A stretch of DNA of 64,000 bases from Acidimicrobiales bacterium (GTDB taxonomy: Bacteria; Actinomycetota; Acidimicrobiia; Acidimicrobiales; DATDAH01): positions 7,161 through 71,160 of the forward strand of contig JAYRFK010000023.1 of NCBI GenBank assembly GCA_041908445.1, written 5' to 3'. Under the pieces are notes generated by a model. It did no database searches. It worked only from the letters and a program-made list of their open reading frames with translations, and was not told the DNA's origin. The position numbers and the translations under genes were made by a program. Positions 10,584-32,468 of the stretch are shown here, piece by piece (position 1 is the first letter of the stretch; each line of letters begins with the position of its first letter).

Positions 10584-10634
10584 CTTCTTCCAGCAGAAAC
10601 GGAAGGTTGCACCTTCCGTTTCTGCTGGAGGAAC
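10584..10634. repeat. 51-bp hairpin repeat, copy 1 (19-bp perfect stem)
   Basis: CTTCTTCCAGCAGAAACGGAAGGT-tgc-ACCTTCCGTTTCTGCTGGAGGAAC. It lies between the PhyH stop and the LLM start on the minus strand. Confidence 0.7.
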
Positions 10635-10654
10635 AGCGATCGTGGGGACGAGCG

Positions 10655-11932
10655 TCAGGCGTCGGGGGGTGCGTCGGCCCAGGCGTCCTTCGCCGACGGC
10701 GCGCTGGCGCCGAGCAGGAGCTTGGGCGCCTTCTCCCGCAGGTCGGACAGCGCCTTGCTGCCGGCGCTGGCCTTGGGATCGCCCTCGTCGGCGCGGGGCA
10801 CCTGCGAGAACCCGGCGTACATGACCTTGCGGGCCTCGGTGACCGGCGGGCGGGCCTCGTGCAGCGTGCACGAGAGGTGGACGGTCAGGTCGCCGGGCTC
10901 GGTCGTCACCGCCACGACGGGCAGGTACGGGTCGTGCTTGGCGATCTCGACGGGCATGACCACCCGGTGCGAGCCGGCGCACACCCGGAGGCGCCCGTTG
11001 GCCTCGCTGCTGCCCGTGACCGAGATGCCGATCGTCGCCCCCGAGCAGCCGTAGGGGTGGCGGCCGAGGTGGCAGTCGCGGTGGAAGGTCACGTCGGAGG
11101 CGCCCCGGACCACACCGACGGGCTTGATCAGCGCCTCGATGGCCTTGCCCTTCACGAGTTCGGCGTCGTCGCCGGCGAGGGTGACCCGCAGCTGCTCCCA
11201 CACCGGCCCGTCGAGGATCGCCGCGGTCGTCGGCGAGTACGGGAGGAAGTCCTGGAGGCGCACGACCCGGTGGCTGCCGTCGGCCAGCTCGGCCCACCAC
11301 GAGCGGCCGTCACCCTCGGTGTACTCCCCCTGGGCCCGGTCGATGTCGGCGGAGATCGTCGCCATGTCGGTGGGGTCGAGCCAGCCCCGCAGGTGCAGGT
11401 ACCCGGCCTCGCGCAGGAAGTGGGCGACGTCGGCGGGATCGTCGTCGCGGGTGAACGACCGCCCGAGGTCGAGGGGACGGCCGTCCCGGTCGAGGAAGGC
11501 GAGGTCGGGGTCGACGATGGGCCAGCCGTCCTGGATGGTGAGCCAGAGCGAGTCCCAGATCGAGACGTCCCGCTCGGTGCCGTCCCGGTAGCGCAGCACC
11601 TGGGCCACGCTCAGCCCGTTGAGGCTGGCCTGCAGCTGGGCCCAGTCGGAGAAGGTGGCGGTGTCGAAGGTGACGACCACCGCCCCGTCGACGACCCCGG
11701 ACCGCACGGCCACGGTGCCGCCCTCGGCCACCAGCGACCAGGCACCACCGCCCTCGCCCTCGACCTCGACCTCGACCGCCAGCGGCGGCGCGCCGAGGGC
11801 CTCGAGGCCGGCCGGGGCCATCGGGCCGCGGCCGGCCAGCAGGGGCGGGAGGTCCTCCGCGAAGAAGGTCGCCGGGTCGAGGGCGCGGATGTCGGCGTCG
11901 CGGCGCGTGCGCCGGTCGAACGGTGCGGGCAT
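10655..11932 (-). CDS. phytanoyl-CoA dioxygenase (PhyH) family Fe(II)/2-oxoglutarate oxygenase with an N-terminal SCP2-like domain
   Basis: 425 aa. The N-terminal ~110 aa resemble an SCP2/sterol-carrier-like module. The C-terminal part has PhyH-type motifs (FHRDCHLG ... CAGSHR). Confidence 0.7.
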   Translation of the reverse strand: MPAPFDRRTRRDADIRALDPATFFAEDLPPLLAGRGPMAPAGLEALGAPPLAVEVEVEGEGGGAWSLVAEGGTVAVRSGVVDGAVVVTFDTATFSDWAQLQASLNGLSVAQVLRYRDGTERDVSIWDSLWLTIQDGWPIVDPDLAFLDRDGRPLDLGRSFTRDDDPADVAHFLREAGYLHLRGWLDPTDMATISADIDRAQGEYTEGDGRSWWAELADGSHRVVRLQDFLPYSPTTAAILDGPVWEQLRVTLAGDDAELVKGKAIEALIKPVGVVRGASDVTFHRDCHLGRHPYGCSGATIGISVTGSSEANGRLRVCAGSHRVVMPVEIAKHDPYLPVVAVTTEPGDLTVHLSCTLHEARPPVTEARKVMYAGFSQVPRADEGDPKASAGSKALSDLREKAPKLLLGASAPSAKDAWADAPPDA

Positions 11933-11962
11933 CGCGGCACTGTCGCGCCGGTTCGCACGCGA

Positions 11963-11980
11963 TGCAAGGGTTCCCTTGCA
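11963..11980. promoter_or_regulatory. perfect 18-bp palindrome TGCAAGGG-TT-CCCTTGCA
   Basis: Lies in the 79-bp divergent region between the PhyH oxygenase (11932) and the TetR gene (12012), just upstream of the TAGCGT -10-like box. Confidence 0.5.
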
Positions 11981-12011
11981 GTGCCCGGGAACGGCGCCTA
12001 GCGTCCTCGCC

Positions 12012-12635
12012 GTGGCGAACGGGGGGCGTGGGTCGACGCGTGAGCGCCTGCTCGATGCCGCGCTCGAGGTCTTCGGCGAGGTCGGCTACACCGGCGCCAC
12101 CATCACCGAGATCGAGCGCCGCGTGGGCCTCACGCCGGGCACCGGCAGCTTCTACCGGCACTTCCCCGACAAGGCCGCGCTGCTCCAGGCGGCCGTGGAA
12201 CGAGAGGTCACCCGGGTGCTCGACGACCTCCGCTCGCCCGAGTGGAGCCCGGCCAGCGCGGAGCAGGCCGAGGCCACGGACGTGACGCTCCGCAAGTCGT
12301 TTGCCATCATCCGCCGCCTCGATCCCCTCTTCCGCCTGATGACGAACGAGGGCGACCGGGTGCCCGAGGTGCGCACCGCCATCGAGGCGGTGGTCGGTGA
12401 CCAGCAGCGCCGGCTGGCGTGGGAGGACGACCCCGGCCTCGTGATCGGCGTGGCCGCGCTCGGCGGCTACCACCTGTTCAGCCGCTTCCAGGGAGGCTCG
12501 TTCCAGCAGGTCCCCGAGGACGCCTTCCTCGGCGCACTGGCCGCCCTCGTCGACACCGCCCGACACGACCCGGGGCGCCTTGACCGGACAACGACGGCAC
12601 CGTACCGTTCTGAGAATTCGATTCTGACGACGTGA
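12012..12635 (+). CDS. TetR/AcrR family transcriptional regulator
   Basis: The HTH region reads RERLLDAALEVFGEVGYTGATITEIERRVGLTPGTGSFYRHFPDKAAL. GTG 12012 sits 7 nt after TAGCGT (leaderless layout). The long upstream ORF extension is Arg/Ala/Ser junk. Confidence 0.85.
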   Translation: MANGGRGSTRERLLDAALEVFGEVGYTGATITEIERRVGLTPGTGSFYRHFPDKAALLQAAVEREVTRVLDDLRSPEWSPASAEQAEATDVTLRKSFAIIRRLDPLFRLMTNEGDRVPEVRTAIEAVVGDQQRRLAWEDDPGLVIGVAALGGYHLFSRFQGGSFQQVPEDAFLGALAALVDTARHDPGRLDRTTTAPYRSENSILTT

Positions 12636-12649
12636 GAACGAAGTTCTGA
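12611..12649. promoter_or_regulatory. two tandem 17-bp palindromes TGAGAAY-N3-RTTCTGA
   Basis: TGAGAATTCGATTCTGA (12611-12627) and TGAGAACGAAGTTCTGA (12633-12649) lie at the TetR 3' end, upstream of the MFS-LivF transporter operon. The stretch is locally AT-rich. Confidence 0.5.
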
Positions 12650-12701
12650 CCGGCCGCGGCCGGGACCACGAGGGGGAGCAACGACAAGTGGGGGAGCGCC
12701 C

Positions 12702-14909
12702 GTGAGCGACGACGCGGCGGCCGAGACCTCGGCCGCGCAGGCGGCGACCCTCGCCGACGCGGTCCTGACCGCGGAGGCCGAGCGCCAGGCCGAGCAGGCC
12801 GAGCGCGAGGTCCTCTTCGCCGACGACCTGCTGCCCGGCGTCGGCGACGAGGCCCTGACCCTGCGCCAGGGCCTCGAGGTCGGCGGCGCCTTCACCTTCG
12901 TGGTCCTGCTGCTGCTGAACGCGCTCGAGCAGCTCGAGGGCGCCGCCCTCAGCGTGCTCGCCCCCGACATCCGCGACGCCTTCAACGTCAGCAGCGGCGT
13001 CATCGTCTTCATCAGCGCCGCCGCCGGCGGGTTCCTCGTCCTCGGCGCGGTCCCCATGGGGTGGCTGGCCGACCGGTACAACCGCCCCCGGATCGTCGGC
13101 ATCGCCAGCCTCGTGTTCTCGGCCATGGTGGCGTGCTCGGGCCTGGCGGTGAACGCGTTCACCCTCTTCCTCGCCCGCTTCGGCGTGGGCATCGCCCGCT
13201 CCAACACCCTGCCCGTCCACGGCTCGCTGATCGCCGACACCTACCCGATCGGGGTCCGTGGGCGCCTGAGCGCCACGACCATGGGCGCCGGCCTCGTCAT
13301 CGCCGCCATCAGCCCGGTGCTCGTCGGCGGCATCGCCGACCTCGCCGGCGGCGCCAACGGCTGGCGGTGGGCCTTCTTCGTCCTCGGCATCCCCGTGCTC
13401 GGCGCCGCCTTCCTCGCCTTCCGGATCCGCGAGGTGCCCCGCGGCCAGTTCGAGATGAAGGACGTCCTCGGCGAGGTCATCGACACGACGCCGGTCGCCA
13501 TGTCGATGGAGTCGGTGTTCTCCCGCCTGAAGCAGATCCGCACGCTGCGCACGGTGATGCTGGCCTTCGCGGCCATCGGCTTCGGACTGTTCACCGGCCC
13601 GGTCCTGATGAACGTCTACGTGGAGGACCGCTTCGGCCTCTCCGCCCTCGAGCGGGGACTGCTCGGCAGCTTCGGCGGCCTGTTCACCCTGGCCATCCTC
13701 CCCTTCGCCGCCCGCGGCTACGACCGGCGCTTCCGGGAGGACCCCGAGAAGGCGCTGCGCCTCGTCGGGCTGCTCATCATCCCCGTCGCCCTGCTCGTAC
13801 CGCTGCAGTACTCGATGCCGAACGCGTTCCTCTTCGCGGTGTTCAGCGTGCCCCCGGCCATCCTGCTCATGACCGCCTTCACCATGGTGGGGCCGATCCT
13901 GCAGTCGGTCACCCCGTACCGCCTGCGGGGCATGGGCAACGCCCTCGGCGCGATCTACGTCTTCTTCGTCGGCGCCACCGCGGGTGCCCTGCTCGCCGCG
14001 TTCTTCACCGACGCCCTCGGCCCCCGCGCCGCGGTGATCCTGCTGATGGTGCCGTCGACGATCATCGGCGGCGTCCTCGTCCTGCGCAGCTCCACGTTCA
14101 TCAAGAACGACCTCTCCCTCGTGGTGGCCGAGCTCCGCGAGGAGATGGACGAGCGCAAGCGCCAGCTCGAGGACCCCGAGCGGACCCCGATGCTCCAGGT
14201 CGCCTCGGTCGACTTCTCCTACGGCCACGTGCAGGTGCTCTTCGACGTGGGGTTCGAGGTCCGCAAGGGCGAGGTGCTCGCGCTGCTCGGCACCAACGGC
14301 GCCGGGAAGTCGACGATCCTGCGGGTGATCGCCGGCCTGGGCACGCCCGCCCGGGGCGTGGTGCGGCTCGAGGGCCGCACCATCACCTACGTCTCGCCCG
14401 AGCGCCGGGGCCCCCTCGGCATCCGCCTGCTGCCCGGCGGCAAGGGGGTGTTCCCCCAGATGACCGTGCAGGAGAACCTCGAGATGGCGGCCTTCGTGTA
14501 CCGGCGCGACCGTGCCGACCACGACCGCCGCATCGCCCGGGTGCACGAGCTCTTCCCGACGCTCGCCGAGCGCCCCGACGACCTCGCCGGCTCGCTGTCC
14601 GGCGGCCAGCAGCAGATGCTGGCGCTCGCCTCGACCCTGCTGCACGAGCCCGACGTGCTCCTGATCGACGAGCTCTCCCTCGGCCTCTCCCCCATCGTCG
14701 TCCAGCAGCTGCTCGAGGTCGTCGAGCGGCTGAAGGCCGAGGGGACCACCATCGTCATCGTCGAGCAGTCCCTGAACGTCGCCCTCGCGGTCGCCGACCG
14801 GGCCGTCTTCCTCGAGAAGGGCCAGGTGCGCTTCGAGGGCGACGCCCGGGAGCTGGCCGAGCGCGACGACCTCGCCCGTGCCGTCTTCCTCGGGCGGGAG
14901 GGCGGATGA
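12702..14909 (+). CDS. fusion protein: 12-TM MFS-type membrane domain plus LivF-type ABC ATPase
   Basis: 735 aa. The N-terminal ~480 aa carry MFS motif A (GWLADRYNRPRIV) and many TM segments. The C-terminal ~240 aa read LGTNGAGKSTILRVIAG...LSGGQQQMLA...LLIDELSLGLSP (Walker A, signature, Walker B), which is LivF-like. Confidence 0.85.
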   Translation: MSDDAAAETSAAQAATLADAVLTAEAERQAEQAEREVLFADDLLPGVGDEALTLRQGLEVGGAFTFVVLLLLNALEQLEGAALSVLAPDIRDAFNVSSGVIVFISAAAGGFLVLGAVPMGWLADRYNRPRIVGIASLVFSAMVACSGLAVNAFTLFLARFGVGIARSNTLPVHGSLIADTYPIGVRGRLSATTMGAGLVIAAISPVLVGGIADLAGGANGWRWAFFVLGIPVLGAAFLAFRIREVPRGQFEMKDVLGEVIDTTPVAMSMESVFSRLKQIRTLRTVMLAFAAIGFGLFTGPVLMNVYVEDRFGLSALERGLLGSFGGLFTLAILPFAARGYDRRFREDPEKALRLVGLLIIPVALLVPLQYSMPNAFLFAVFSVPPAILLMTAFTMVGPILQSVTPYRLRGMGNALGAIYVFFVGATAGALLAAFFTDALGPRAAVILLMVPSTIIGGVLVLRSSTFIKNDLSLVVAELREEMDERKRQLEDPERTPMLQVASVDFSYGHVQVLFDVGFEVRKGEVLALLGTNGAGKSTILRVIAGLGTPARGVVRLEGRTITYVSPERRGPLGIRLLPGGKGVFPQMTVQENLEMAAFVYRRDRADHDRRIARVHELFPTLAERPDDLAGSLSGGQQQMLALASTLLHEPDVLLIDELSLGLSPIVVQQLLEVVERLKAEGTTIVIVEQSLNVALAVADRAVFLEKGQVRFEGDARELAERDDLARAVFLGREGG

Positions 14910-17791
14910 CGCCCGTGCTCGCCGCCACGCTGGTGACCCGCCAGCTCATCTTCACGGGTGTCGTCAACGGCATGGTCTTCGGCCTCGTGGCCATGGGGAT
15001 CGTGCTGATCTACCGATCGACCCGGGTCATCAACTTCGCGGTCGCCAACCTCGGCCTGATCGGGACGGGCCTGTTCGTCCTGCTGGTGGCGCAGTACTCC
15101 GTGCCGTTCTGGCCGGCGGCGATCCTCTCGCTCGCGGCGGGCACCCTCTGGGGCGCGCTGATGGAGCTGGTGGTCATCCGCCGCCTCTTCACCGCGCCCC
15201 GGGTCATCGTGCTGGTGGCCACCATCGGCATCTCCAGCCTGTCGCTCGCCGTGCTGCTGCTGTTCCCCGAGGTCGACGCCCCCGGTGCCCGCTTCCCCGT
15301 GGCGGTGGGCTCGGTGCACGAGTGGCTCGGCGTGCGGGTCACCGGGCCCGAGCTCGTCATCGTGGTGCTGGTCCCGCTCGTCGCGATCCTCTTCACCTGG
15401 ATGCTGAACCGCACCGCCCTGGGCAAGGCGGTGAAGGCGTCGGCCGACAACCCCGACCTGGCCCGCCTCGCCGGCATCAGCCCCAAGCTGGTGTCGACCG
15501 CGGTCTGGGCCATCGCCGGCGCCCTGGCCACGCTGTCGCTGTCGCTGCTGGCCGGTGACACCGGGGCGGCGACCAACCTGGCCAGCCTCGGCCCGAGCAC
15601 CCTGGTCCGCGCCCTCGCCGCCGCCGTCATCGCCGGCATGTACTCGTTCCGGCGGGCGTTCATCGCCGGCATCGCCATCGGCGTGGTCGAGGCGGTCGTG
15701 CGCTTCAACTACCTCGACGCCCCGGGCCTCATGGACTTCCTCGTCCTGCTGGCCGTGCTCGTCGCCGTCAACTGGCAGAGCCGCCAGGGCACCGGCGAGA
15801 CCCAGACCTTCTCCTTCGGCGCCAAGCCCCGACCCATCCCCGAGCGCCTCCGGGGCGTCTGGTGGGTGCGCCAGATCGACCGGGCCGGGCTCGTGCTCAT
15901 GGGCCTCGGCGCGATCGTGCTCCCGATCATCGTCACGGCGCCGTCGCGCCAGCTGCTCTACACGTCGATCCTCGCCTTCGCCCTGTGCGCCCTCTCGCTC
16001 ACCGTCCTCACGGGATGGGGCGGCCAGCTCTCCCTCGGCCAGATGGCCTTCGCGGGGATCGGCGCACTGCTGATGGCGGCGTTCTCCCGGGGCGTGAACG
16101 TCGACCTGCGCGTCGGTGACGTGCGCCTCCTGAAGGCCGGGATCCAGCCGCTCACCTTCGTGACCGCCGTCGCGCTGGCCGTGGCCATCACCGCGCTGCT
16201 GGCGACCCTCATCGGCGCCAGCGCGCTGCGGGTCCGCGGCCTCTACCTGGCGGTCAGCACCTTCGCCTTCGGCCTCGCCGCCCAGCAGTACCTCTACGGC
16301 CGGCCCCTCCTGAGCGGCGGGTTCAGCCAGTCGGTGCCCTACCAGCGCACGAACCTGTTCGGGATCGTCGACCTCGGGTCGCAGCGCTCGATCTACTACG
16401 TGACCCTCGTCCTGTTGATCGTGGGCGTGGTGGTCATCGCCCACCTGCGCCGCACCGGGATCGGCCGCACCACCATCGCGGTGCGCGACAACCCCGACGG
16501 CGCCGCCGCCTACACGGTGTCGGCCACCCACACGAAGCTGCGGGCCTTCGCCCTGGCCGGCGGCATCGCCGCGCTGGGCGGGGCCCTGCTGGCCGCCAAC
16601 ATCCAGAGCGTCCCCACGACCCGCTACTTCACCGTGGCGGACTCGCTCCTGCTCGTGGCCATGGTCGTGATCGGCGGGCTCGGGTCGGTGGCGGGCGCCG
16701 TCCTCGGTGCGATCTGGGTGGTCGGCCTGCCGGCGTTCTTCCCCGACAACGACGTGGTGCCGCTGCTCACCTCGAGCCTCGGCCTGCTCGTCCTGCTCCT
16801 CTACTTCCCCGGCGGGCTCGTGCAGATCGGCCACGCGCTGCGGGACGCCATCGTGGGCTGGGCCGAGCGCCGCCACCCCGCCGAGACCACCAAGCAGCAG
16901 GTGACCGTACCCGTGGCGCCGGTGCGCTCCGAGCGGGTGGCGCTGCCCGAGGGCACGCCGGCGCTGCGCACCACGGACGTCGTGGTCCGCTTCGGCGGCA
17001 TCCACGCGGTCTCGGGGGTGAGCATCGACGTGGGCGACGGCGAGATCGTCGGGCTCATCGGCACCAACGGCGCCGGCAAGTCCACCCTGATGAACGCCGT
17101 CGGCGGCTACGTGCCCTCGCAGGGCCACGTCGAGCTCCTCGGGCGGCCGGTCGACGGGCTCTCCGCGAACCGGCGGGCCCGCCTGGGCCTCGGGCGCACG
17201 TTCCAGGCCGCCACCCTCTTCCCCGAGCTGACCGTGCGCGAGACCGTGCTGGTCGCCCTCGAGGCCCGCCACCGCAGCGCCCTCGTCACCAACGCGCTGT
17301 TCTGGCCGCCGGCGCTCAAGCACGAGCGCACCAAGCGGGCCCAGGCCGACGAGATCGTCGACTTCCTCGGCCTCGGCCGCTACGCGGAGGCGTACATCGG
17401 CGACCTCTCCACCGGCACCCGCCGCATCGTCGAGCTGGCCGGCCTGCTCGCCCTCGACGCCCGGGTGCTCTGCCTCGACGAGCCGACCGCCGGCGTGGCC
17501 CAGCGCGAGACCGAGGCCTTCGGACCGCTGCTGCTGGAGATCCGGCGCGAGCTCGGGGCGTCGCTGCTCGTCATCGAGCACGACATGCCCCTGATCATGG
17601 GCATCAGCGACCGGGTCTACTGCCTCGAACTGGGCCAGATCATCGCCGAGGGCGCGCCCGAGGCCGTCCGCAACGACCCCGCCGTCATCGCCAGCTACCT
17701 CGGCACCGACGAGCGGGCCATCGCCCGCAGCGGGGCGGCGGCCGAGCCGTCATCGACGCCGACGACGCCCGCCGAACCGACCACCGCCTGA
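14906..17791 (+). CDS. fusion protein: LivH-like permease plus LivM-like permease plus LivG-type ABC ATPase
   Basis: ATG 14906 overlaps the upstream stop (ATGA). It forms one uninterrupted frame of 961 aa. Domains are LivH (IVLIYRSTRVINFA), LivM (LTGWGGQLSLGQMAFAGIGA) and LivG (LIGTNGAGKSTLMN...LSTGTRRIVELA...LCLDEPTAG). The ORF-track extension back to 13061 is an out-of-frame overlap artefact. Confidence 0.85.
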   Translation: MTPVLAATLVTRQLIFTGVVNGMVFGLVAMGIVLIYRSTRVINFAVANLGLIGTGLFVLLVAQYSVPFWPAAILSLAAGTLWGALMELVVIRRLFTAPRVIVLVATIGISSLSLAVLLLFPEVDAPGARFPVAVGSVHEWLGVRVTGPELVIVVLVPLVAILFTWMLNRTALGKAVKASADNPDLARLAGISPKLVSTAVWAIAGALATLSLSLLAGDTGAATNLASLGPSTLVRALAAAVIAGMYSFRRAFIAGIAIGVVEAVVRFNYLDAPGLMDFLVLLAVLVAVNWQSRQGTGETQTFSFGAKPRPIPERLRGVWWVRQIDRAGLVLMGLGAIVLPIIVTAPSRQLLYTSILAFALCALSLTVLTGWGGQLSLGQMAFAGIGALLMAAFSRGVNVDLRVGDVRLLKAGIQPLTFVTAVALAVAITALLATLIGASALRVRGLYLAVSTFAFGLAAQQYLYGRPLLSGGFSQSVPYQRTNLFGIVDLGSQRSIYYVTLVLLIVGVVVIAHLRRTGIGRTTIAVRDNPDGAAAYTVSATHTKLRAFALAGGIAALGGALLAANIQSVPTTRYFTVADSLLLVAMVVIGGLGSVAGAVLGAIWVVGLPAFFPDNDVVPLLTSSLGLLVLLLYFPGGLVQIGHALRDAIVGWAERRHPAETTKQQVTVPVAPVRSERVALPEGTPALRTTDVVVRFGGIHAVSGVSIDVGDGEIVGLIGTNGAGKSTLMNAVGGYVPSQGHVELLGRPVDGLSANRRARLGLGRTFQAATLFPELTVRETVLVALEARHRSALVTNALFWPPALKHERTKRAQADEIVDFLGLGRYAEAYIGDLSTGTRRIVELAGLLALDARVLCLDEPTAGVAQRETEAFGPLLLEIRRELGASLLVIEHDMPLIMGISDRVYCLELGQIIAEGAPEAVRNDPAVIASYLGTDERAIARSGAAAEPSSTPTTPAEPTTA

Positions 17792-17814
17792 CCCGACCAC
17801 GCCTGATCCGCGGG

Positions 17815-17845
17815 CGACCGACCTTCGACCGACCTTCGACCGACC
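17815..17845. repeat. 11-bp tandem repeat (CGACCGACCTT x2.8) followed by (ACACC)2
   Basis: cgaccgacctt cgaccgacctt cgaccgacc lies between the LivHMG stop and the SBP RBS. Confidence 0.6.
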
Positions 17846-17872
17846 ACACCACACCAACCAGGGGGAACCACC

Positions 17873-19222
17873 GTGCGCAGGACCATCCTCGCCGTGACCG
17901 CAGCCGCGCTGCTGCTGTTCGGCTGCACCTCCGGCGACTCGTCGTCGTCGGACACCACCAGCGGGGGCGACAGCACCGCCTCCACCACCGCCCAGACCTT
18001 CCCGACCGGGCCGGCGCCGGGCGTCACCGACACCAGCGTCAAGGTGGGCGTGACCTACGTCGACCTGGCCAGCCTGGCCGGCATCGTCGACATCGACCAC
18101 GGCGACTACGAGGCGGCCTACACCGCGCTGTTCGACTCGATCAACGCCGAGGGCGGCATCAACGGCCGCACCATCGAGCCGGTCTTCGCCCCCATCGCCC
18201 CGACCGGGAACGAGCCCGCCGACGCCGCCTGCACGAAGCTCACCGAGGACGACGACGTCTTCCTCATCATGGGCTTCTTCCTCGGCGACAACGTGCTGTG
18301 CCCGGTCGAGGCCCACTCGACCGCGGTCATCGGCGGCGTGCTCACCGCCGAGCGCCTGGCCCGGGCCGACGCCCCCTGGTACTCCAACGAGGGCAGTGAG
18401 GACCTCCAGGCCGAGGCCGTGCGCTCGATGGCCGAGGCGGGCGACCTCGACGGCACCGTCGGCGTCTTCGGAGGGCCCGAGGAGCAGACCCTCATGGACG
18501 ACGTGATCCTGCCGCTGCTCGACGAGCTCGGCGTCGACGTGGCCGAGTCCGCCATCGTCGACCAGAGCGCCGACGACACCGCCGGCACCGACAACTCCAC
18601 CCAGGTGATCGGCCAGCGCTTCGAGGCCGCCGGCGTCGACCAGGTGATCGTGCTCGGCACCTCGAGCATCGCCTGGGCCCGGGGTATCGCCGCCACCGAC
18701 TACCGGCCGGCGCTGCGCTTCACCGAGCAGGGCGCCATCAACACCTACGTGGGCCAGGAGAGCGCGGACCTGACCCTGATGGAGGGCGCCGAGCTCGGTG
18801 GCCTCTTCGGCGGCTCGGCCAACCAGTACCAGCTCCCGGCGATGCAGGACTGCCTCGGGATCATCGAGGACGCCGGCATCGAGGTGCCCGACCCCGAGGG
18901 CCAGGAGACCGTCGACAACCAGCCCTGGACCTCCTCCATGACCGCCTGCTCCCAGGTGATGCTGTTCCAGGCGCTCGTCGAGGCGGCCGGCGAGGACCTC
19001 AACTACGGGTCGCTGCAGGGCGGCGCCGAGGGCCTCGTGGTCGACATGCCCAACCAGCCCGAGCCCTTGACCTTCGGCAACGGCGAGCACGGCGACGGCG
19101 ACCCGCCGGCGTACCTGTTCGACTTCGACGCCGACAGCCGGGCGTTCGTCCTCCGCGAGGGCCAGACCGGTGACGCCGGCGACGGCGGTAGCTCCGACAC
19201 CACGGACACCACCGCCGACTGA
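17873..19222 (+). CDS. ABC-transporter substrate-binding lipoprotein (LivK-like)
   Basis: MRRTILAVTAAALLLFGCTSGDSSSSD gives a signal peptide with a lipobox and a Ser/Thr linker. It is a clear paralogue of 29047-30372 (shared GVTD..KVGVTYVD...GGINGR.IEPVFAPI...KLTED.DVFLI.GFFL). Confidence 0.85.
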   Translation: MRRTILAVTAAALLLFGCTSGDSSSSDTTSGGDSTASTTAQTFPTGPAPGVTDTSVKVGVTYVDLASLAGIVDIDHGDYEAAYTALFDSINAEGGINGRTIEPVFAPIAPTGNEPADAACTKLTEDDDVFLIMGFFLGDNVLCPVEAHSTAVIGGVLTAERLARADAPWYSNEGSEDLQAEAVRSMAEAGDLDGTVGVFGGPEEQTLMDDVILPLLDELGVDVAESAIVDQSADDTAGTDNSTQVIGQRFEAAGVDQVIVLGTSSIAWARGIAATDYRPALRFTEQGAINTYVGQESADLTLMEGAELGGLFGGSANQYQLPAMQDCLGIIEDAGIEVPDPEGQETVDNQPWTSSMTACSQVMLFQALVEAAGEDLNYGSLQGGAEGLVVDMPNQPEPLTFGNGEHGDGDPPAYLFDFDADSRAFVLREGQTGDAGDGGSSDTTDTTAD

Positions 19223-19232
19223 ACCCGTTTGC

Positions 19233-19273
19233 GCACCGGTCGGGCACGGCGTCGCGCCGGGCCCGACCGGTGC
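19233..19273 (+). terminator. hairpin terminator candidate after the SBP gene (13-bp perfect stem)
   Basis: GCACCGGTCGGGC-acggcgtcgcgccgg-GCCCGACCGGTGC. There is no U-tract, which I recall is frequent for intrinsic terminators in high-GC actinobacteria. Confidence 0.4.
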
Positions 19274-19326
19274 CCGACGCGCCCCCAACCGGCCCTCGAC
19301 GGGCCCAGCGAGGAAGGTGACCTGCC

Positions 19327-20298
19327 GTGAGCGACACCCCCGACGTCCCCCGCGTGACCCACCCCGACGCCGACGACCAGCTGGACCCCTGGGTCGTGCA
19401 GTGGATGGTCGACAACCCGCTGCGGGCGGGGGTGTTCGACACCCTCGACCCCGCGATCCTCCCGCTGGCCCGGGGCGACAACCCCTTCCCCGTGACCCGG
19501 GAGATCGCCAAGGTCACCGACGAGGAGGTCGCCGGCGTCCCCGTGCGCATCTACGAGCACGACGAGCCCGCCACCGGGCTGCTGGTCTACCTGCACGGCG
19601 GCGGCTTCTGCATCGGCAGCATCGGCCTGATGGACAACGTGGCCCGCGAGCTCGCCCACGCCACCGGCGCCGCGGTGGTCTCGGTGGAGTACCGCCTCGC
19701 CCCCGAGCACCCGTACCCGGCGGGCCTCGACGACTGCGAGACCGTGACCCGCTGGGCGCTGGCCAGCACCGAACGCTTCGGCGTCGCCCCGGGCCAGGTG
19801 GTGGTGGGCGGCGAGAGCGCCGGCGGCAACCTCACCGCGGCGGTGGCGCTGCGCCTCCGGCGCGACCCGGCCGAGGCACCCCTCGCCGCCCAGCTCCTGC
19901 TCTACCCGGGCACCGCCGGCCGTGCCGACGACGCCGACCTGCCGTCACGCGAGTACTTCGACGGCATCGTCCTCAGCGACAAGGCCCGGGACGTGTTCTG
20001 GGGCGCGTACAGCGCCGGCCGCGACCTCGACGGCGACCCCGAGGCGGCGCCGCTGTGGGCCGACGACCTCACCGGCCTCCCGCCGGCCATCGTCGTCCTC
20101 GGCGGCTGCGACGTGCTCCGCGACGAGGGCCGCGCCTACGCCCGTCGCCTCGCCGAGGCGGGCGTGCCCACCCACGAGGTCTGCTACCCGGGCCAGCCCC
20201 ACGGCTTCTTGAACCACGACTTCCCCGCCGCCGCGGAGGCGTGGGCCGAGGTCGGCACCTGGCTCCGCCCGATCCTCGCCGCCGCCTCCTCCTCCTGA
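19327..20298 (+). CDS. alpha/beta hydrolase, hormone-sensitive-lipase-type esterase
   Basis: 323 aa with the HGGGF oxyanion motif (YLHGGGFCIGS) and the GESAGGNL nucleophile elbow. Confidence 0.85.
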   Translation: MSDTPDVPRVTHPDADDQLDPWVVQWMVDNPLRAGVFDTLDPAILPLARGDNPFPVTREIAKVTDEEVAGVPVRIYEHDEPATGLLVYLHGGGFCIGSIGLMDNVARELAHATGAAVVSVEYRLAPEHPYPAGLDDCETVTRWALASTERFGVAPGQVVVGGESAGGNLTAAVALRLRRDPAEAPLAAQLLLYPGTAGRADDADLPSREYFDGIVLSDKARDVFWGAYSAGRDLDGDPEAAPLWADDLTGLPPAIVVLGGCDVLRDEGRAYARRLAEAGVPTHEVCYPGQPHGFLNHDFPAAAEAWAEVGTWLRPILAAASSS

Positions 20299-20367: not shown

Positions 20368-22938
20368 TCAGGGCTGAGCCGGCGCGTCCGCTTGGTCGTC
20401 GGGCTCGGGGGCGGGTGGGGCGGGGACCTCGACGGTGGCCCGGCCGGTGAGGTCGGCCGACGAGCGGCCCACCAGCAGGGTGTAGGTGCCGGGGTCGACC
20501 TGCCAGCCGGGGGCGCGGCGCTCGGCTCGTAACTGGGCGCCGAGCATGTCGCCGAGGCGCTCGGCCACGGCGTCGGCGTCGGGCTCGCCCGGGTCCCCGT
20601 AGGCGAACGACCGGTCGTCCAGCACGAGGTCGACGGTGGTCGTCTCCCCCGGAGCGAGGCGCACCTTGGCGAAGGCCTTGAGCTCCTTCGGGGGACGGAC
20701 GAGGCGGGGCGACTCGGTGGCCACGTAGAGCTGCACCACCTCGGCGCCGGGCCGGTCGCCGGTGTTGGTCACGGGCACCGACACGGTGAGCGTGTCGCCG
20801 GGCTCGAACGTGGACGACGACAGCGTCGGCTCCCCGAGGGCGAAGGTCGTGTAGCCGAGGCCGTGGCCGAACGGGAACCGGGGCGTGATGGCCCGGTGCT
20901 CGAAGCCCCGGTAGCCCATGAACACGCCCTCGCCGTAGCGGACGTGGCCGTTCTCGCCGGGGAAGTTGTCGTGCGACGGCGAGTGCTCGACCCGCTCGGG
21001 GTACGTCGTCGGGAGGCGCCCGCCGGGCTCGAGCGCGCCGGTGAGCACGTCGGCGACCGCCGGGCCGAGCTCCTGGCCGCCGAACCAGCACTGGAGGGTG
21101 GCGGCCACGTCGTCGACCCACGGCAGGTCCACCGGAGAGGCGGCGTTCACGACCACCGCTGTGCGGGGGTTGGCCGCGAGCACCCGGCGGACCAGGTCGT
21201 CCTGGCCACGGGGCAGCGCGAAGGACGTGCGGTCGCGGCCCTCGGTCTCCCACTCATGGTTGGTGCCGACGAACACCACCGCCACGTCGGCGTCCGCGGC
21301 CGTGGCCACCGCCTCGTCGAGGAGGGCGGCGGCGTCGGCGGTCCGGAAGCCGACCCGCACGCCCGCCATGCCCGAGCCCCGGTAGAAGTAGTCGACCCGG
21401 ACCGCGACCGGGGTGCCCACGGTGACCTCGATCTCGGTCACCTTGTCGAGGCTGGCGTAGCCGAAGAAGTCGCTGCCGCCGCGCGGCGGCGGGTCCTCCA
21501 CGCCGTCGAGCACGAGCTCGTCGTCGAGGTACACCCGGGCCGTGCCCACCTGGGCGAGGGAGAGCTCGAAGCGGCCCGACACGACGGGCACGACGGTGCC
21601 GGTGATGCGCATGGTCCAGCGCTCGTCCTCCCCCTCGGGCTGGCCGAGGCGCACGATCATCTTGCGCAGCTCGTCGAGCTGGTCGCGCTCGAGGAGCTCG
21701 CCGTCGAACTCCTCGCCGGCGAAGCGCTCCAGGGTGAAGCCGTCGGGCACCGGCAGCACCGAGGTGCCCAGCACGGCGGCCGACCGGCCGATCTCCAGGG
21801 CGCGCGCGTAGGTGACCTCCACGCCGTCGCCGAGGGCGGCGGTGAGGGCGTCGAGGGGGCTCACCTGTGGGTGCTGCACCACCTGGGCGGAGCCGCCGCC
21901 GACGATGCAGGCCGACACCGCGGGCTCGCCGATGACGGCCACCCGCCCCACGGCGCCGGCGTTGATCGGCAGGAGGCCGTCGTTGGCGAAGAGCACGCAG
22001 GCGTCGGCGGCGGCGCGCCGCAGCAGGTCCACGTCCGCCGCGGTGGGCGGCTGGGGCACGACCGGCGGCGTCGGCTCGTCGAGCGCGCCGATGCGGTCGA
22101 GGGCGTGGAGCAGGCGGGTCACGGCGGCGTCGAGGTCGGCCTCGGGCACCCGCCCCTCGGCCACGGCCTCGCGCACGACGTCGCCGAGGGCCCGCGCCGG
22201 CGCCGGCATCTCGAGGTCGAGGCCGGATCGCAGCGACGTCTCGGTGCTGGCCACGGCGAACCAGTCGGTCATCACCAGGCCCTCGAAGCCCCAGTCGTCA
22301 CGCAGGAGGTCGACGAGCATCGCCTCCTGCTCGGTGAGCCAGCTCCCGTTGAGCCGGTTGTAGGACGTCATGATCCCGAGGGCGCCGCCCTCCTTCACCG
22401 CCAGCTCGAAGGGCACGAGGTAGAGCTCGCGCAGCGAGCGCTCGTCCACGTCGGAGCTGATGGTCATGCGCTCGAACTCGGCCTCGTTCGCCACGAAGTG
22501 CTTCACCGTGGCGAACACGCCGTTGCCCTGCACGCCCCGCACGTAGCCGGCGGCGAGCTTCCCCGAGAGGTACGGGTCCTCGGAGTAGCACTCGAAGTTG
22601 CGACCGGCGTAGGGGTGGCGGTGGAGGTTGACCGTCGGCGCCAGCAGGCCCCGACAGCCCCGCTCGAACGCCTCGCGGCCGACGAGCTCGCCGAGTGCCT
22701 CGGCGACCGCCGGGTCCCACGTGGCGCCGACCGCCGAGCCGCACGGCAGGCAGCTCGACGCCGCGCCGCCGGCCCCCGGGTAGCTGAGGCCGCGTGCGCC
22801 CGACGGCCCGTCGGTGACGTTCACCTGGGGGATCCCGACCCGCTCGACAGCGACCAACGAGAACATGTCGGCGCCGGCGGTCAGCGCCGCCTTCTCCTCG
22901 AGCGTCAGCGCGGCGACGAGCGCCTCGACGTCAGCCAT
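20368..22938 (-). CDS. glycoside hydrolase family 3 beta-glucosidase with PA14 insert and C-terminal Fn3-like domain
   Basis: 856 aa. LTLEEKAALTAG...VTDGPSGARG, ...VMTDW... and a C-terminal GETTTVDLVLDDRSFAY pattern fit GH3. There is no signal peptide. Confidence 0.9.
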   Translation of the reverse strand: MADVEALVAALTLEEKAALTAGADMFSLVAVERVGIPQVNVTDGPSGARGLSYPGAGGAASSCLPCGSAVGATWDPAVAEALGELVGREAFERGCRGLLAPTVNLHRHPYAGRNFECYSEDPYLSGKLAAGYVRGVQGNGVFATVKHFVANEAEFERMTISSDVDERSLRELYLVPFELAVKEGGALGIMTSYNRLNGSWLTEQEAMLVDLLRDDWGFEGLVMTDWFAVASTETSLRSGLDLEMPAPARALGDVVREAVAEGRVPEADLDAAVTRLLHALDRIGALDEPTPPVVPQPPTAADVDLLRRAAADACVLFANDGLLPINAGAVGRVAVIGEPAVSACIVGGGSAQVVQHPQVSPLDALTAALGDGVEVTYARALEIGRSAAVLGTSVLPVPDGFTLERFAGEEFDGELLERDQLDELRKMIVRLGQPEGEDERWTMRITGTVVPVVSGRFELSLAQVGTARVYLDDELVLDGVEDPPPRGGSDFFGYASLDKVTEIEVTVGTPVAVRVDYFYRGSGMAGVRVGFRTADAAALLDEAVATAADADVAVVFVGTNHEWETEGRDRTSFALPRGQDDLVRRVLAANPRTAVVVNAASPVDLPWVDDVAATLQCWFGGQELGPAVADVLTGALEPGGRLPTTYPERVEHSPSHDNFPGENGHVRYGEGVFMGYRGFEHRAITPRFPFGHGLGYTTFALGEPTLSSSTFEPGDTLTVSVPVTNTGDRPGAEVVQLYVATESPRLVRPPKELKAFAKVRLAPGETTTVDLVLDDRSFAYGDPGEPDADAVAERLGDMLGAQLRAERRAPGWQVDPGTYTLLVGRSSADLTGRATVEVPAPPAPEPDDQADAPAQP

Positions 22939-29046: not shown

Positions 29047-30372
29047 ATGACCACCGGAACCCGCCGCCTCGTGGCGGCGCTCGCGCTCGTCGCCGCCTCC
29101 GCGCTCGCGGTCGCGGCCTGCACGTCGGGCGACACGTCGGACGACGACGCCGCCTCGTCCACCACCGCGGCCTCGTCGGAGGACACCGCGCCCGCGGCGA
29201 CCGGGCCGTCGCCCGGCGTCACCGACGACACCATCAAGGTGGGCGTCACCTACGTCGACACCGCCAGCCTCGTCGCGTCGGGCCTCAACTACGACCTCGG
29301 CGACCACGAGGCCGTGTACACCGCGCTGTTCGACCAGATCAACGCCGACGGCGGCATCAACGGCCGCCAGATCGAGCCCGTGTTCGCGCCGATCGACCCG
29401 ACCAGCCCGGCGCCGGCCGAGGAGGCGTGCGTGAAGCTGACCGAGGACGAGGACGTCTTCCTCATCACCGGCTTCTTCCTCGCCGACGCCGTGACCTGCC
29501 CGGTCACCACCCACGAGACCGCCGTCGTCGGCGGCGAGATGACGCCGCAGCGCACCGCCGACGCCGCTGCACCGTGGATCACGTGGATCCCCGACGAGGA
29601 GCTCCCGGCCTCCGTCGTGGCCGCCTACGACGAGGCGGGGCTGCTCGACGGCACCGTGGGCGTCTTCGGCGCCGCACGTGACCAGGAGCAGATCGAAGGG
29701 ACCATCGTCCCGGCCCTCGAGGAGGCCGGCGTCGACGTGGCCGAGACCGGCATCATGGATGCCCCGGCCGACGACCAGGCCGCGGTGAACGCCAGCGTGC
29801 AGGCCATCGCCGAGCGCTTCGACGCCTCGGGCGTCGACACCGTGGTGATCGCGGGGTCGAGCGGCCAGGACTGGCCCACGAACATGGCCGACGACGACTC
29901 GTACCGGCCGACCCTCCTGTTCACCACGCTCGTCGGGCCCCACGCGTTCCTGTCGAACGCTGCGACCACCGACACGTCGGTGCTGGACGGCTCGTACGCG
30001 GGTGGCGCCTACGGTCCCGACCAGGCCCGCTTCGAGGAGGCCGCGATGCAGGACTGCATCCAGATCCTGAGCGACGCAGGCCTCGACACCCCCGCGCCCG
30101 AGGAATCGAGCGACGACCCGTCGAACCAGCCCTACCAGGCCGCCTTCCAGGCCTGCCCGGACGTGGTGCTGACCCAAGCGCTGCTCGAGGCCGCCGGCCC
30201 CGACCTCAACTACGGCACCCTCGAGGCGGCCATCGACGGCCTCGAGGTCACCATCCCGGGCGATCCCGAGGCCCGCACGTACGGGCCCGCCCCGGCGTCC
30301 GACGGTGACCCCACGGCCTACCTGTTCGAGTTCGACACCGACGCCCAGGACTACACCCTGATCGAGGACTGA
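29047..30372 (+). CDS. ABC-transporter substrate-binding lipoprotein (LivK-like)
   Basis: MTTGTRRLVAALALVAASALAVAACTSGD contains a lipobox and is followed by an Asp/Ser/Thr/Ala linker. It is a paralogue of 17873-19222. ATG 29047 is preceded by GGGGGAG. Confidence 0.85.
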   Translation: MTTGTRRLVAALALVAASALAVAACTSGDTSDDDAASSTTAASSEDTAPAATGPSPGVTDDTIKVGVTYVDTASLVASGLNYDLGDHEAVYTALFDQINADGGINGRQIEPVFAPIDPTSPAPAEEACVKLTEDEDVFLITGFFLADAVTCPVTTHETAVVGGEMTPQRTADAAAPWITWIPDEELPASVVAAYDEAGLLDGTVGVFGAARDQEQIEGTIVPALEEAGVDVAETGIMDAPADDQAAVNASVQAIAERFDASGVDTVVIAGSSGQDWPTNMADDDSYRPTLLFTTLVGPHAFLSNAATTDTSVLDGSYAGGAYGPDQARFEEAAMQDCIQILSDAGLDTPAPEESSDDPSNQPYQAAFQACPDVVLTQALLEAAGPDLNYGTLEAAIDGLEVTIPGDPEARTYGPAPASDGDPTAYLFEFDTDAQDYTLIED

Positions 30373-30455: not shown

Positions 30456-32468
30456 CTACGAGACGACGACCCGGGCCCGTCCGAGGTTGAGCACCCGGGC
30501 GTGGGGCGAGCGCAGGCTCCCCTCGCGCTGGGCGCTGACCCGCACGGCCACGAAGTAGGTGCCGGGCTCGTCGTAGGTGTGGGTGATCGACGACGTGCAG
30601 CGCGACGACGCCCCGTCGACGGTCGGGTCCGACTCGGCGTAGGCGCCGGAACCGTCGACGTCCCACTCCACCGCGACGACGGTGCCGGTGCCCGGCGGCA
30701 CCTCGATCTCGGCACGGAGCTCGACGGTCGCGCCGACGGCCACCTCGGCGCGCGACCCGCCGTTCGCGGTGAGCGACACGGTGGGTTGGATGCCGCGGCG
30801 TTCCCCCGCGGTGGGCGGCACGTGCACCTGGCCCCCGACCACGTCGTAGACGGTGCTCGCCGGCGGCGGCACGTCGTGCTCCGCCCACGCCACCAGCGCC
30901 CGGAGGGCGTGCTGGAGGGCGCCGGCGTAGCTGGTGAAGCGGGTGGTCGGCACCGGCCGCTCGGCGCCGGGCAGGTCCATCGGGGCCATGTGCATGGCGT
31001 GGTCGAGGAAGTAGATGCGGAAGCGTTCGTCGGCGGCCGGGCCCTGCGCCTCGTGGACGAGGTCGTCGTACCAGGCCGCCTGCCAGGGGTAGGCCGCCTC
31101 GTCGAGCAGCGCCTCGACCACGATCATCTTGGCGTTGAAGCGGCCCGACTGGACCGTGCCGGTGCCCGGCTTGCTCATCGTCGTGCCGATGAACCGCGGC
31201 CGCTGCGGGTACACGGGTCGGCCGTCGAGGCAGAACTGCTCCCACACCGGGAAGTCCGGGCTGACCTGGTGGCGGTGGTAGGTCTGGAAGGCGAGGTGGG
31301 CGTCGTTGTCGATCGTCACCTCGTCCCCCGCGGCCACCCCGGCGAGGTGCTCGAAGTGGGCCTCGCCCACCCCGGTGAGCACGAAGCCGTCCTGGAGCCC
31401 GGCGATCCAGAGGTTGACCCCCGCGGCCGACCCGGTGGTGATGCGCAGCTGCGCGCCCCGCACCTCGCCGTCGGGCAGGTCCGCCAGCTCCAGCGCAGCG
31501 ACGATGTCAGCGACGGGGACCCCACGGGGCATGGCGAGCGGGAGCGGAAGTCCGAGCTCCGCGGCCTCGTCCCCCATGATCGGGCGGGCGATGGTCGTGC
31601 GGTGCTGGACGCGCGCCCTGGCCAGCGAGGCCGGCGGGTCCGCGCCGAGGTAGCCGGGGACGGTCCAGAAGTCCTCGACGTAGGTGCGGTCGGCGGCGAG
31701 CAGGTTGTCGGCCAGCGCTCCCCACACCGTGGTGTAGCTGCGGGCCAGGCTCTGGTAGGCGAACCACGCGCGGGGCGGGAAGCCGACGGCGGTGGCCTCG
31801 GCGAGCGCCTCGCGCTCCTCCACCGAGAGGCCGGCGTAGGGGTCGCCGGAGCCGCCGGGCTCGAGGGCGTCGACGATCTGCGGGAACCGCTCCCAGAGGA
31901 TGCGCAGGGCATGGGCCTGCACGCCGAACACGCTCGGGATCGACTGGGGGCTGCCGATGACGAACGGCACCCCGCCGTCCCACACGTCCACGGTGTTCTC
32001 GAGGCACGCCATCGTCTTGAAGCCGCCGCCGCTGCCGCCGTAGCAGTAGCCGTACGGTCGGTGCTCGCCGTACATCTCGGCCGCGAGCGTGCGGGAGTAC
32101 CGCGCCACCGCCGCGCTGGCCCGGAAGCCCGTCACCGTCCCGTCCTCGCCCGGGAAGGGGTTCGTGCGCCCGAGGTTGGACTCGACGAGGTAGGCGCCGC
32201 TGTCGACCGCGAACTCGATCGAGGCCCCCATGCCGACGAGGATCCCCATGCCGACCGCGTGCTCCGTGCCCGACATGAACATGAGGGGCTGGAAGAACCG
32301 CCCCTCGTACCGCTCCACCGGCGGGAAGTACATCGAGAAGAGCAGGTCGGTGCCCTCGAACCCGCCGTGCACGTAGCGGTGCGGCACGGGCTCCTCGCGC
32401 CACTCGTCGACGTCGACGAACGGCGTCGCGAACTCCGGATCCTTCGACCCCGCGGCTGGCAGGCTCAT
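30456..32468 (-). CDS. uncharacterised putative hydrolase with C-terminal PKD/Ig-like domain
   Basis: ATG 32468 follows GGAGGGAAGG. The 670-aa product has an N-terminus PHRYVHGGFEGTDLLFSMYFPP and a GYCYGGSGGGF stretch, a possible G-x-S-x-G elbow. The last ~100 aa look PKD-like (VEWDVDGSGAY...THTYDEPGTYFVAVRV). No signal peptide is seen. Confidence 0.55.
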   Translation of the reverse strand: MSLPAAGSKDPEFATPFVDVDEWREEPVPHRYVHGGFEGTDLLFSMYFPPVERYEGRFFQPLMFMSGTEHAVGMGILVGMGASIEFAVDSGAYLVESNLGRTNPFPGEDGTVTGFRASAAVARYSRTLAAEMYGEHRPYGYCYGGSGGGFKTMACLENTVDVWDGGVPFVIGSPQSIPSVFGVQAHALRILWERFPQIVDALEPGGSGDPYAGLSVEEREALAEATAVGFPPRAWFAYQSLARSYTTVWGALADNLLAADRTYVEDFWTVPGYLGADPPASLARARVQHRTTIARPIMGDEAAELGLPLPLAMPRGVPVADIVAALELADLPDGEVRGAQLRITTGSAAGVNLWIAGLQDGFVLTGVGEAHFEHLAGVAAGDEVTIDNDAHLAFQTYHRHQVSPDFPVWEQFCLDGRPVYPQRPRFIGTTMSKPGTGTVQSGRFNAKMIVVEALLDEAAYPWQAAWYDDLVHEAQGPAADERFRIYFLDHAMHMAPMDLPGAERPVPTTRFTSYAGALQHALRALVAWAEHDVPPPASTVYDVVGGQVHVPPTAGERRGIQPTVSLTANGGSRAEVAVGATVELRAEIEVPPGTGTVVAVEWDVDGSGAYAESDPTVDGASSRCTSSITHTYDEPGTYFVAVRVSAQREGSLRSPHARVLNLGRARVVVS

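Follow-up and report, generated by a model that had tools for sequence, protein, structure and literature searches.

A major facilitator domain fused to the LivF-type ATPase of a two-polypeptide ABC importer conserved in Actinomycetota

We analysed a 64,000-nucleotide stretch of DNA (the window) from contig JAYRFK010000023.1 of an Acidimicrobiales bacterium, in which two adjacent genes encode a complete ATP-binding cassette (ABC) importer together with a major facilitator superfamily (MFS) domain. Our favoured reading, held with moderate confidence, is that these genes represent a conserved subfamily of binding-protein-dependent HAAT-type ABC importers of Actinomycetota, packed into two translationally coupled polypeptides, and that the MFS domain is an integrated, coupled module of the machine. 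The reading builds on direct observations of the architecture, its conservation, the retention of MFS motifs, the divergence correlations between domains and the gene neighbourhoods. ABC (primary) and MFS (secondary) transporters are usually seen as two distinct ways of moving solutes across a membrane. In the present architecture, recorded in several hundred genomes of Actinomycetota, one ATPase of a complete ABC importer is universally joined, by covalent fusion, to an entire MFS fold.

Since long wrong-frame open reading frames (ORFs) are common at the ~72% G+C of the window, both genes were checked by content. ORF1 (12702-14909, + strand, GTG start) encodes 735 residues in a single frame with zero internal stops. 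Pfam places MFS_1 at residues 70-421 (E 1.7e-32, 113.1 bits against a gathering cut-off of 33.4) and ABC_tran at 515-657, so that the MFS-LivF fusion described in the initial annotation is real, and the domain-profile search it proposed, with MFS_1 far above its cut-off, leaves the MFS identity standing. Motif A, GWLADRYNRPRIV, occupies residues 120-132, and an AlphaFold2 model built from 60 homologues (pLDDT 84.7, pTM 0.78) contains 12 transmembrane (TM) helices, in keeping with the approximately 12 segments previously noted. The polypeptide divides into four parts. Residues 1-54 (12702..12863, +) comprise a cytoplasmic N-terminal helix (residues 4-36, modelled at low confidence) and a conserved LPGVG motif at residues 44-48. 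These are followed by the 12-helix MFS_1 domain (residues 55-465; 12864..14096, +), which is distantly Spinster-like and whose central loop, modelled at high confidence, contains two short helices. A conserved linker between TM12 and the ATPase (residues 466-495; 14097..14186, +), modelled as a helix over residues 467-490, leads into the LivF-type ATPase (residues 496-735 plus stop; 14187..14909, +), the nucleotide-binding domain of the model being residues 496-731. The top NCBIfam matches of this last segment are UrtE (192.1 bits) and LivF (190.7 bits). It has the canonical motifs of its family (GTNGAGKS of Walker A at 530, LSGGQ at 632, VLLIDE at 652 and IVIVEQ at 684), and it matches PDB 1ji0 with 40% identity and a TM-score of 0.88.

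ORF2 (14906-17791, + strand) encodes LivH, LivM and LivG in one polypeptide of 961 residues. The profile PF02653 (BPD_transp_2) matches it in two stretches (E 5.6e-54). The LivH-type permease domain (residues 1-300; 14906..15805, +) contains the first of these, at 15-288, and a UrtB-like match at 14-291; the LivM-type permease domain (residues 320-660; 15863..16885, +) contains the second, together with a UrtC-like match at 351-639 and hydropathy segments. The LivG-type ATPase (residues 680-961; 16943..17791, +) has ABC_tran at 703-862, Walker A at 719, a non-canonical LSTGT signature, CLDEP and LLVIEH, and ends in the LivG-specific BCA_ABC_TP_C tail (PF12399; 911-936, E 5.4e-11). The closest structural relatives of the two ATPases are PDB 1g6h and 1ji0; a sequence search of the PDB with the LivH-LivM part returned zero solved relatives, and so no template for the permeases. 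At the junction of the two genes, GGATGA at 14904-14909, the ATG of ORF2 overlaps the TGA of ORF1 (ATGA, 14906-14909) and a GGGAGG ribosome-binding-like site lies upstream, from which we conclude that the two genes are translationally coupled. Profile matches and junction thus agree with the ATGA-coupled triple fusion of the earlier description. Moreover, the Pfam and NCBIfam assignments account for two permease domains and two ATPases outside the MFS domain; the HAAT set is complete without it, as had also been claimed.

The signature of the LivG-type ATPase (ORF2 ~825-830) reads LSTG[TS]R instead of LSGGQ in 56/56 scored loci. With a canonical signature on the LivF side, the importer may have two unequal ATP sites.

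Dozens of independent genomes share this two-gene layout, which is more than chance would give. A protein search found 2139 clusters that match ORF1 at E<=1e-10, and the best 120 of these are all ~720-755 residues long, each with both PF07690 and PF00005. A scan of one genome per GTDB species, with patterns drawn solely from the MFS domain, confirmed that this domain is encoded at no fewer than 343 loci in species-representative genomes. The best 80 loci come mostly from Acidimicrobiia (Microthrixaceae, Ilumatobacteraceae, Iamiaceae and 'Aldehydirespiratoraceae'), and the remainder from Yinghuangia, Embleya, Streptodolium and Frankia/Parafrankia. Multiple copies per genome are common among the listed loci, and the closest genome relatives of the window among the matches listed are metagenome-assembled genomes (MAGs) of Acidimicrobiales/Microthrixaceae, at 84% identity. 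Layout was scored at the 66 loci with at least 4.8 kb of downstream sequence: a single ORF encodes both MFS and LivF in 63 of the 66, LivH and LivM are fused in 60, and LivH, LivM and LivG in 58. The exceptions fall mostly in MFD-labelled MAG assemblies, which we take to be long-read assemblies prone to indel errors.

These counts bear directly on whether a frameshift or misjoin merged separate MFS and LivF genes. The window comes from a metagenome contig and high-GC DNA yields long spurious ORFs, both of which invite such an explanation. Yet the identical 735-residue protein occurs on nine contigs from several different samples, collinear fusions are present in complete genomes (for example, CP108400 and OZ244202), the linker is conserved and 63/66 loci are fused. 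The fusion also came through the frameshift and stop check put forward in the initial annotation, and we regard an assembly or annotation artefact as refuted for practical purposes.

The fusion looks ancient and obligate, judging from searches for its parts. A HMMER search of 1.84 billion representatives with the MFS domain alone gave 220 matches at E<=1e-30; whole-domain matches, which reach down to 31% identity, belong to proteins of 700-750 residues, and no stand-alone sister MFS was found among them. Six distant full-length representatives were scanned and ABC_tran was present in 6/6. Three proteins that appeared to be MFS-only (P0182, P0187 and P0158) were rejected as such, their C termini being frameshifted fusion sequence. 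A distant relative of 619 residues, P0235, joins the MFS domain to a shortened, degenerate ATPase domain without Walker A and with an altered signature, and may represent a non-catalytic sub-branch. The plasmid collection contains one full-length match, on an Embleya replicon with uninformative annotation.

Two further observations concern the distribution and the fusion itself. Four short contigs (L028, L053, L015 and L045) are binned as Bifidobacterium breve, Burkholderiales or Acidobacteriota; their MFS domains are 56-63% identical to that of the window, and they are probably mis-binned Actinomycetota contigs, not a wider taxonomic spread. In the draft genome of Parafrankia sp. EUN1f (L026:5364-10205) an uninterrupted ORF of 1613 residues comprises glycoside hydrolase family 3 (GH3), Fn3-like, MFS_1 and ABC_tran domains. 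We set this apparent triple fusion aside as proof of a functional link, since the junction resembles translated intergenic DNA with PDTPEVAN repeats; the single ORF may reflect a lost stop codon or sequencing error, not a true triple fusion.

We then compared the MFS domain with carriers of known structure. Its nearest solved relatives by sequence are SPNS1 (9boi, E 3.9e-10) and HnSpns (6e8j, E 4.7e-8), followed by DgoT, EfpA and EmrB, the two Spns matches lying over the N-domain. The functional residues of HnSpns comprise D87 and R91 in motif A, the D142 relay, R122 in motif B, the TM1 acid D41, the substrate-binding R42 and E129, the master switch of protonation (PMC9440201). These were mapped by pairwise alignment onto 199 full-length fusions, the set to which the following frequencies refer. 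The motif-A pair, in loop 2-3, corresponds to D124 and R128 (conserved in 99% and 100%), the charge-relay D142 to D179 (99%), R122 of motif B, in TM4, to R159 (94%) and the TM1 acid to E79 (E in 81%). In TM1, positions 76, 77 and 79 are, respectively, acidic in 97%, Glu in 77% and acidic in 87%; G163 is conserved in 96%, and K/R166 and H/Q173 are conserved as well. By these alignments the domain retains the general MFS conformational machinery along with a buried N-domain charge cluster, and it looks functional by prediction.

The two remaining residues define the Spinster family and are not kept. The equivalent of the substrate-binding R42 is G80, a position occupied by A, S or G and by R in 6%, and that of the switch E129 is R166, where K accounts for 84%, R for 9%, Q for 5%, A for 1% and I for 1%; D or E occurs at position 166 in none of the 199 fusions. 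We rejected membership of the Spinster family on these two residues. Spns is likely the origin of the MFS domain, not the family to which it belongs.

The MFS domain is not decaying, as far as its rate of change can tell. Mean identity to the window protein across 59 loci is 58% for MFS, 57% for LivH, 60% for LivM, 72% for LivF and 71% for LivG, and 37% for the binding protein (38 loci), placing the divergence rate of the MFS domain with those of LivH and LivM. Conservation within ORF1, weighted to an effective 77 sequences after clustering at 80% identity, is 0.78 in the ATPase domain and 0.56-0.76 in the TM helices. The central loop is poorly conserved in most MFS families; its two helices here score 0.79 and 0.75, on a level with the ATPase. 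The LPGVG segment scores 0.73, the motif being present in 55/71 full-length relatives, and in the linker D470 is conserved in 100%, R487 in 97% and E480, E481 and E484 each in at least 85%.

These patterns can be set against the notion of a passive anchor, in which the MFS domain would only tether LivF beside LivHMG, with its single ATPase, and ensure 1:1 assembly, taking no part in transport or sensing. Canonical machinery that is complete without the MFS domain, a universal fusion, C-domain TM helices without conserved charges and the degenerate ATPase domain of P0235 are what such an anchor might leave behind. Tethering, however, needs neither 12 helices nor a motif-A relay conserved at 99-100%; the buried acid/base cluster in TM1 and TM4 is kept, the domain diverges at the rate of true permease domains, and the conserved central loop and LPGVG suggest a specific interface. 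We therefore consider a mere anchor doubtful.

Evidence that the MFS domain has evolved along with the permeases comes from mirror-tree analysis, in which pairwise distance matrices were compared across 40 complete loci and partial correlations control for ATPase divergence. MFS distances correlate with those of LivH at r 0.94 (partial 0.68) and of LivM at r 0.91 (partial 0.51), the partial value for MFS and LivH exceeding that of the LivH-LivM pair itself (r 0.92, partial 0.57). The correlation of the MFS domain with LivF, its own fused ATPase, is r 0.80, and with LivG r 0.59, so that its divergence is closer to that of LivH than to that of the ATPase to which it is joined. With the binding protein, r is 0.82 for MFS (partial 0.33), 0.81 for LivH (partial 0.31) and 0.84 for LivM (partial 0.38). 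Every partial correlation has a Mantel p = 0.001. Such a pattern fits an MFS domain that is a third permease-like module, co-evolving with LivH/LivM and with specificity, and not an inert tether.

The same data touch on a second alternative, that the MFS domain is an independent secondary transporter, driven by the proton gradient and fused for co-expression only, which might pump out a toxic aglycone or product, or offer a parallel uptake route of low affinity, with no allosteric link to the ATPase. The acidic TM1 cluster and motif-B Arg that it keeps are typical of proton-coupled carriers, it resembles carriers of the Spns, EfpA, EmrB and DgoT types, and the cytoplasmic glycosidases encoded at related loci (below) would release aglycones. 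Against this, neither a split gene nor an unfused orthologue appeared among several hundred loci and representatives, the linker is conserved, as are the cytoplasmic loops, MFS divergence follows LivH more tightly than LivF, and the master-switch Glu of Spns is replaced by Lys/Arg/Gln. We rate an independent carrier as unlikely.

For complex formation, coupling and the direction of transport we infer an arrangement based on the canonical family. LivG, at the C terminus of ORF2, and LivF would form an ATPase heterodimer under LivH-LivM, and lipoprotein binding proteins would deliver substrate by docking on LivHM. The MFS domain, a third working membrane module in this view, would sit lateral to LivH; through contacts of its conserved cytoplasmic face and of the linker with the ATPase layer, nucleotide state would be coupled to MFS state. 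As an integrated module it would act as a gated accessory pathway or as an allosteric sensor and regulator, not as a passive anchor, and a second pathway might handle a hydrophobic moiety or product. Of the roles suggested in the initial annotation (sensor, second path or anchor), a passive anchor is the one that our evidence disfavours. A stronger version, which we regard as rather unlikely, is a primary/secondary hybrid in which the ATPase cycle, acting through the linker helix and the cytoplasmic face, drives or gates alternating access of the MFS domain, giving one machine with two translocation paths on one ATPase dimer. Such a hybrid could, for example, take in an amphipathic glycoside or ester through LivHM while its hydrophobic moiety is flipped or exported by the MFS domain.

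The cognate binding-protein gene expected from the earlier description lies downstream of ORF2 (17873..19222, +). Its product, SBP1, is a lipoprotein of 449 residues with a cluster B LivJ-type fold, a Peripla_BP_6 match and an LLFGC lipobox. Foldseek matches of its AlphaFold2 model (pLDDT 87) include LivJ, UrtA and AmiC and extend over leucine-, urea-, amide-, aromatic-acid- and fatty-acid-binding proteins, all at 10-17% identity; the best sequence match is 4n03. A second, orphan binding protein of 433 residues, SBP2 (29071..30372, +; Peripla_BP_6), was found by tblastn and shares 51% identity with SBP1. It lacks dedicated transporter genes, and is 55-60% identical to binding proteins that stand directly beside MFS-LivF at four other loci (L005, L008, L010 and L012). 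From this resemblance to MFS-LivF-adjacent binding proteins of other Acidimicrobiia, SBP2 probably serves the same transporter as SBP1, which would then work with two binding proteins.

To approach the substrate, genes were called in the best 80 of the at least 343 loci with a caller based on G+C at third codon positions, which reproduced the database gene calls in the window, and the products were clustered. The binding-protein family neighbours the transporter at 57/80 loci, in 49 of them at position -1 or +2. Among enzymes, GH3 recurs at 17 loci, GH78 rhamnosidase and GH2 at seven each and GH1 at six, with at least one of these four families at 30/80; a GFO/IDH/MocA oxidoreductase is present at 10/80, a LacI regulator at 8/80, the 670-residue serine-hydrolase-like family c7 at 8/80 and an Abhydrolase_3 esterase at 6/80, esterases as a whole being found at 13/80. 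P450, acyl-CoA synthetase, Amidohydro_2, SDR and acyl-CoA dehydrogenase genes recur too. No signal peptides were detected on the GH1, GH2, GH3 and GH78 neighbours at the 30 loci, so an intact glycoside would have to be imported. In Frankia/Parafrankia the genes run co-directionally and tightly spaced, in the order LacI | GH2 GH3 MFS-LivF LivHMG SBP oxidoreductase GH3. In Yinghuangia seranimata (L029:4444-7896) the stop codon of an 1150-residue Abhydrolase_3 esterase-GH3 fusion overlaps the start of MFS-LivF by 4 nt.

Both halves of this fusion have counterparts in the window. A cytoplasmic Abhydrolase_3 esterase (19327..20298, +; Pfam E 4.7e-69) aligns with its N-terminal half, and a GH3 beta-glycosidase (20368..22938, -), which has PA14 and Fn3-like domains and lacks a signal peptide, aligns with its C-terminal half; both are candidate substrate-processing enzymes. 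The window also encodes a c7 protein (30456..32468, -), a cytoplasmic serine-hydrolase-like protein of 670 residues with a GGSGGG motif and a C-terminal PKD domain, which has 46-65% identity to the c7 proteins found directly against the binding protein or transporter at eight other loci. A c7 representative has a weak Tannase match, and a sequence search of the PDB with the window protein (30456-32468) found no relative. In other Acidimicrobiia the pair of SBP2 and c7 adjoins the transporter directly, and c7 looks like an uncharacterised enzyme family tied to it. For this window we favour an amphipathic glycoside or ester, such as an acylated beta-glycoside, which the esterase and GH3 enzyme encoded nearby would process in the cytoplasm.

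These neighbourhoods contrast with an ordinary branched-chain amino-acid (LIV-I-type) importer, with an MFS domain that serves as trans-inhibition sensor or has some minor accessory role. The top family matches (LivF, LivG and UrtB-E), the LivJ-like fold of the binding protein and the JGI product name 'branched-subunit amino acid transport' all point that way. However, the scores lie below the equivalog cut-offs (LivF 190.7 against 441, LivG 208.5 against 362), the binding protein barely reaches Peripla_BP_6 and has 10-17% identity to solved binding proteins of every ligand class, and no amino-acid metabolism genes were seen among the recurring neighbours, which are instead glycosidases, esterases, LacI, P450 and acyl-CoA enzymes. 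We consider a LIV-I-type importer improbable; most likely the system takes up something other than a branched-chain amino acid. Because the LivF and LivG scores are far below the NCBIfam equivalog cut-offs, the 'Liv' label denotes family-level similarity only. Hence the name Liv-type, as applied in the initial annotation, holds for the protein families and, given these scores and neighbourhoods, probably not for the substrate.

Several observations weigh against an integrated and coupled MFS module in an importer of glycosides or esters. With respect to the MFS domain, conserved charges are absent from the C-domain TM helices in the 199 fusions, and the K/R/Q found at the HnSpns E129 position leaves the mode of energy coupling ambiguous. 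The conserved cytoplasmic loops possibly serve folding or assembly alone, and a correlation of distance matrices cannot tell physical coupling from rate behaviour common to membrane domains. With respect to the substrate, assigning a ligand from the SBP1 fold was tried and rejected, since proteins of every ligand class are among its hits, all at 10-17% identity. Neither a glycosidase nor an esterase is present at about half of the related loci, and the GH3 gene of the window is on the strand opposite to the transporter. Moreover, the surrounding genes mostly concern lipid or CoA-ester catabolism, which makes a lipid-like substrate equally possible. Lipid, steroid-like or CoA-ester catabolism genes flank the transporter at 1-11932 and 23090-28622 of the window, and include a thiolase, a 4HBT thioesterase, an SDR, a ChsH2-like protein, enoyl-CoA hydratases, a luciferase-like monooxygenase, a PhyH dioxygenase, an acyl-CoA dehydrogenase and an APH-like kinase.

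Ahead of ORF1 lies a gene for a TetR-family regulator of 207 residues (12012..12635, +; Pfam TetR_N E 4.4e-13), together with two tandem operator-like repeats of 18 nt, TGAGAATTCGATTCTGAC (12611..12628) and TGAGAACGAAGTTCTGAC (12633..12650), spaced 22 bp apart, which agrees with the TetR gene and palindromic pair noted before. In a repeat search each was resolved into 5-3-5 inverted arms, AGAAY-N3-RTTCT, and both are putative regulator-binding sites. The second repeat starts exactly at the TetR stop codon, and the pair lies in an AT-rich patch of the 72% GC contig. As a TetR homologue is upstream of the transporter at 0/66 related loci, the regulator gene and the operator-like repeats are a local addition, not a conserved part of the system. 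A promoter and terminator consensus scan of 11900-20500 gave no matches, the consensus being uninformative for high-GC Actinomycetota. Elsewhere in the window, an ORF of 353 residues (32585-33646, -) matches the MFS_1 profile over the C-terminal two thirds alone (125-346), which may reflect truncation of an MFS gene or a wrongly called start.

If the MFS domain is coupled to the importer, it would represent a new way to regulate or energise a transporter, and would offer a naturally occurring case in which to examine whether an MFS fold can be driven by an ABC ATPase. The findings also bear on the annotation of carbon uptake in abundant, poorly cultured groups, since 'branched-chain amino acid' labels on the subfamily are probably wrong and the genes lie in glycoside/ester utilisation operons of soil and sludge Acidimicrobiia, Frankia and Yinghuangia.

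Comparison with characterised transporters places the system among the relatives of E. coli LivJ/K-LivHMGF (LIV-I) and cyanobacterial UrtABCDE (HAAT, TC 3.A.1.4), with which it shares two BPD_transp_2 permeases, a LivG/UrtD-type ATPase with BCA_ABC_TP_C, a LivF/UrtE-type ATPase and a cluster B binding protein. With the same component families, it is probably a binding-protein-dependent importer driven by an ATPase heterodimer. Those systems have five canonical genes, whereas here there are two, with LivH, LivM and LivG fused, and only here does LivF carry a 495-residue N-terminal MFS module. The LivG signature LSTG[TS]R is a further difference, the LivF and LivG scores given above fall short of orthology to the E. 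coli proteins, and the gene neighbourhoods argue against amino acids and urea. Non-amino-acid HAAT-like systems provide a second comparison. Binding proteins of Rhodopseudomonas palustris (4evs, 4f8j and 4eyg) bind aromatic acids and that of Thermomonospora curvata (4n03) a fatty acid; they belong to the same fold family as SBP1 and illustrate that 'Liv-type' transporters take substrates other than amino acids, but at only 10-17% identity to SBP1 they allow no transfer of ligand. To our knowledge, none of these systems has an MFS domain.

The Spns proteins (HnSpns 6e8j and human SPNS1 9boi; TC 2.A.1.49) share with the fusions the motif-A pair, motif-B Arg, relay Asp and TM1 acid. They differ in having the Glu switch and the substrate-binding Arg in place of K/R/Q and A/S/G, and in being stand-alone proton-coupled carriers without a fused ABC ATPase. 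LplT-Aas is an example of an MFS protein fused with a cytoplasmic catalytic or signalling domain. In these fusions and in the Sensor Kinase-MFS family the partner is of another kind; here it is the ATPase of an ABC importer that already has its own permease domains. Sensor Kinase-MFS proteins (TC 2.A.1.34) join an MFS domain to a cytoplasmic signalling domain, and the MFS fusions described alongside them do not include MFS-LivF (PMC3924187). A search of the full-text literature, in which subscription journals are thinly covered, brought up no account of an MFS-LivF or MFS-ABC importer fusion, although a TCDB or InterPro entry is possible, and database names are generic ('MFS transporter', 'ATP-binding protein' and 'hypothetical protein'). 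The initial annotation knew of no functional description, which agrees with what we found in the literature and in database names; the architecture itself is not rare, and Actinomycetota have a large family of such proteins. Their sequences were already public; what is new is their recognition as a distinct, widespread and obligate architecture, together with evidence that the MFS domain is integrated into the machine and the reassignment of the importer's substrate.

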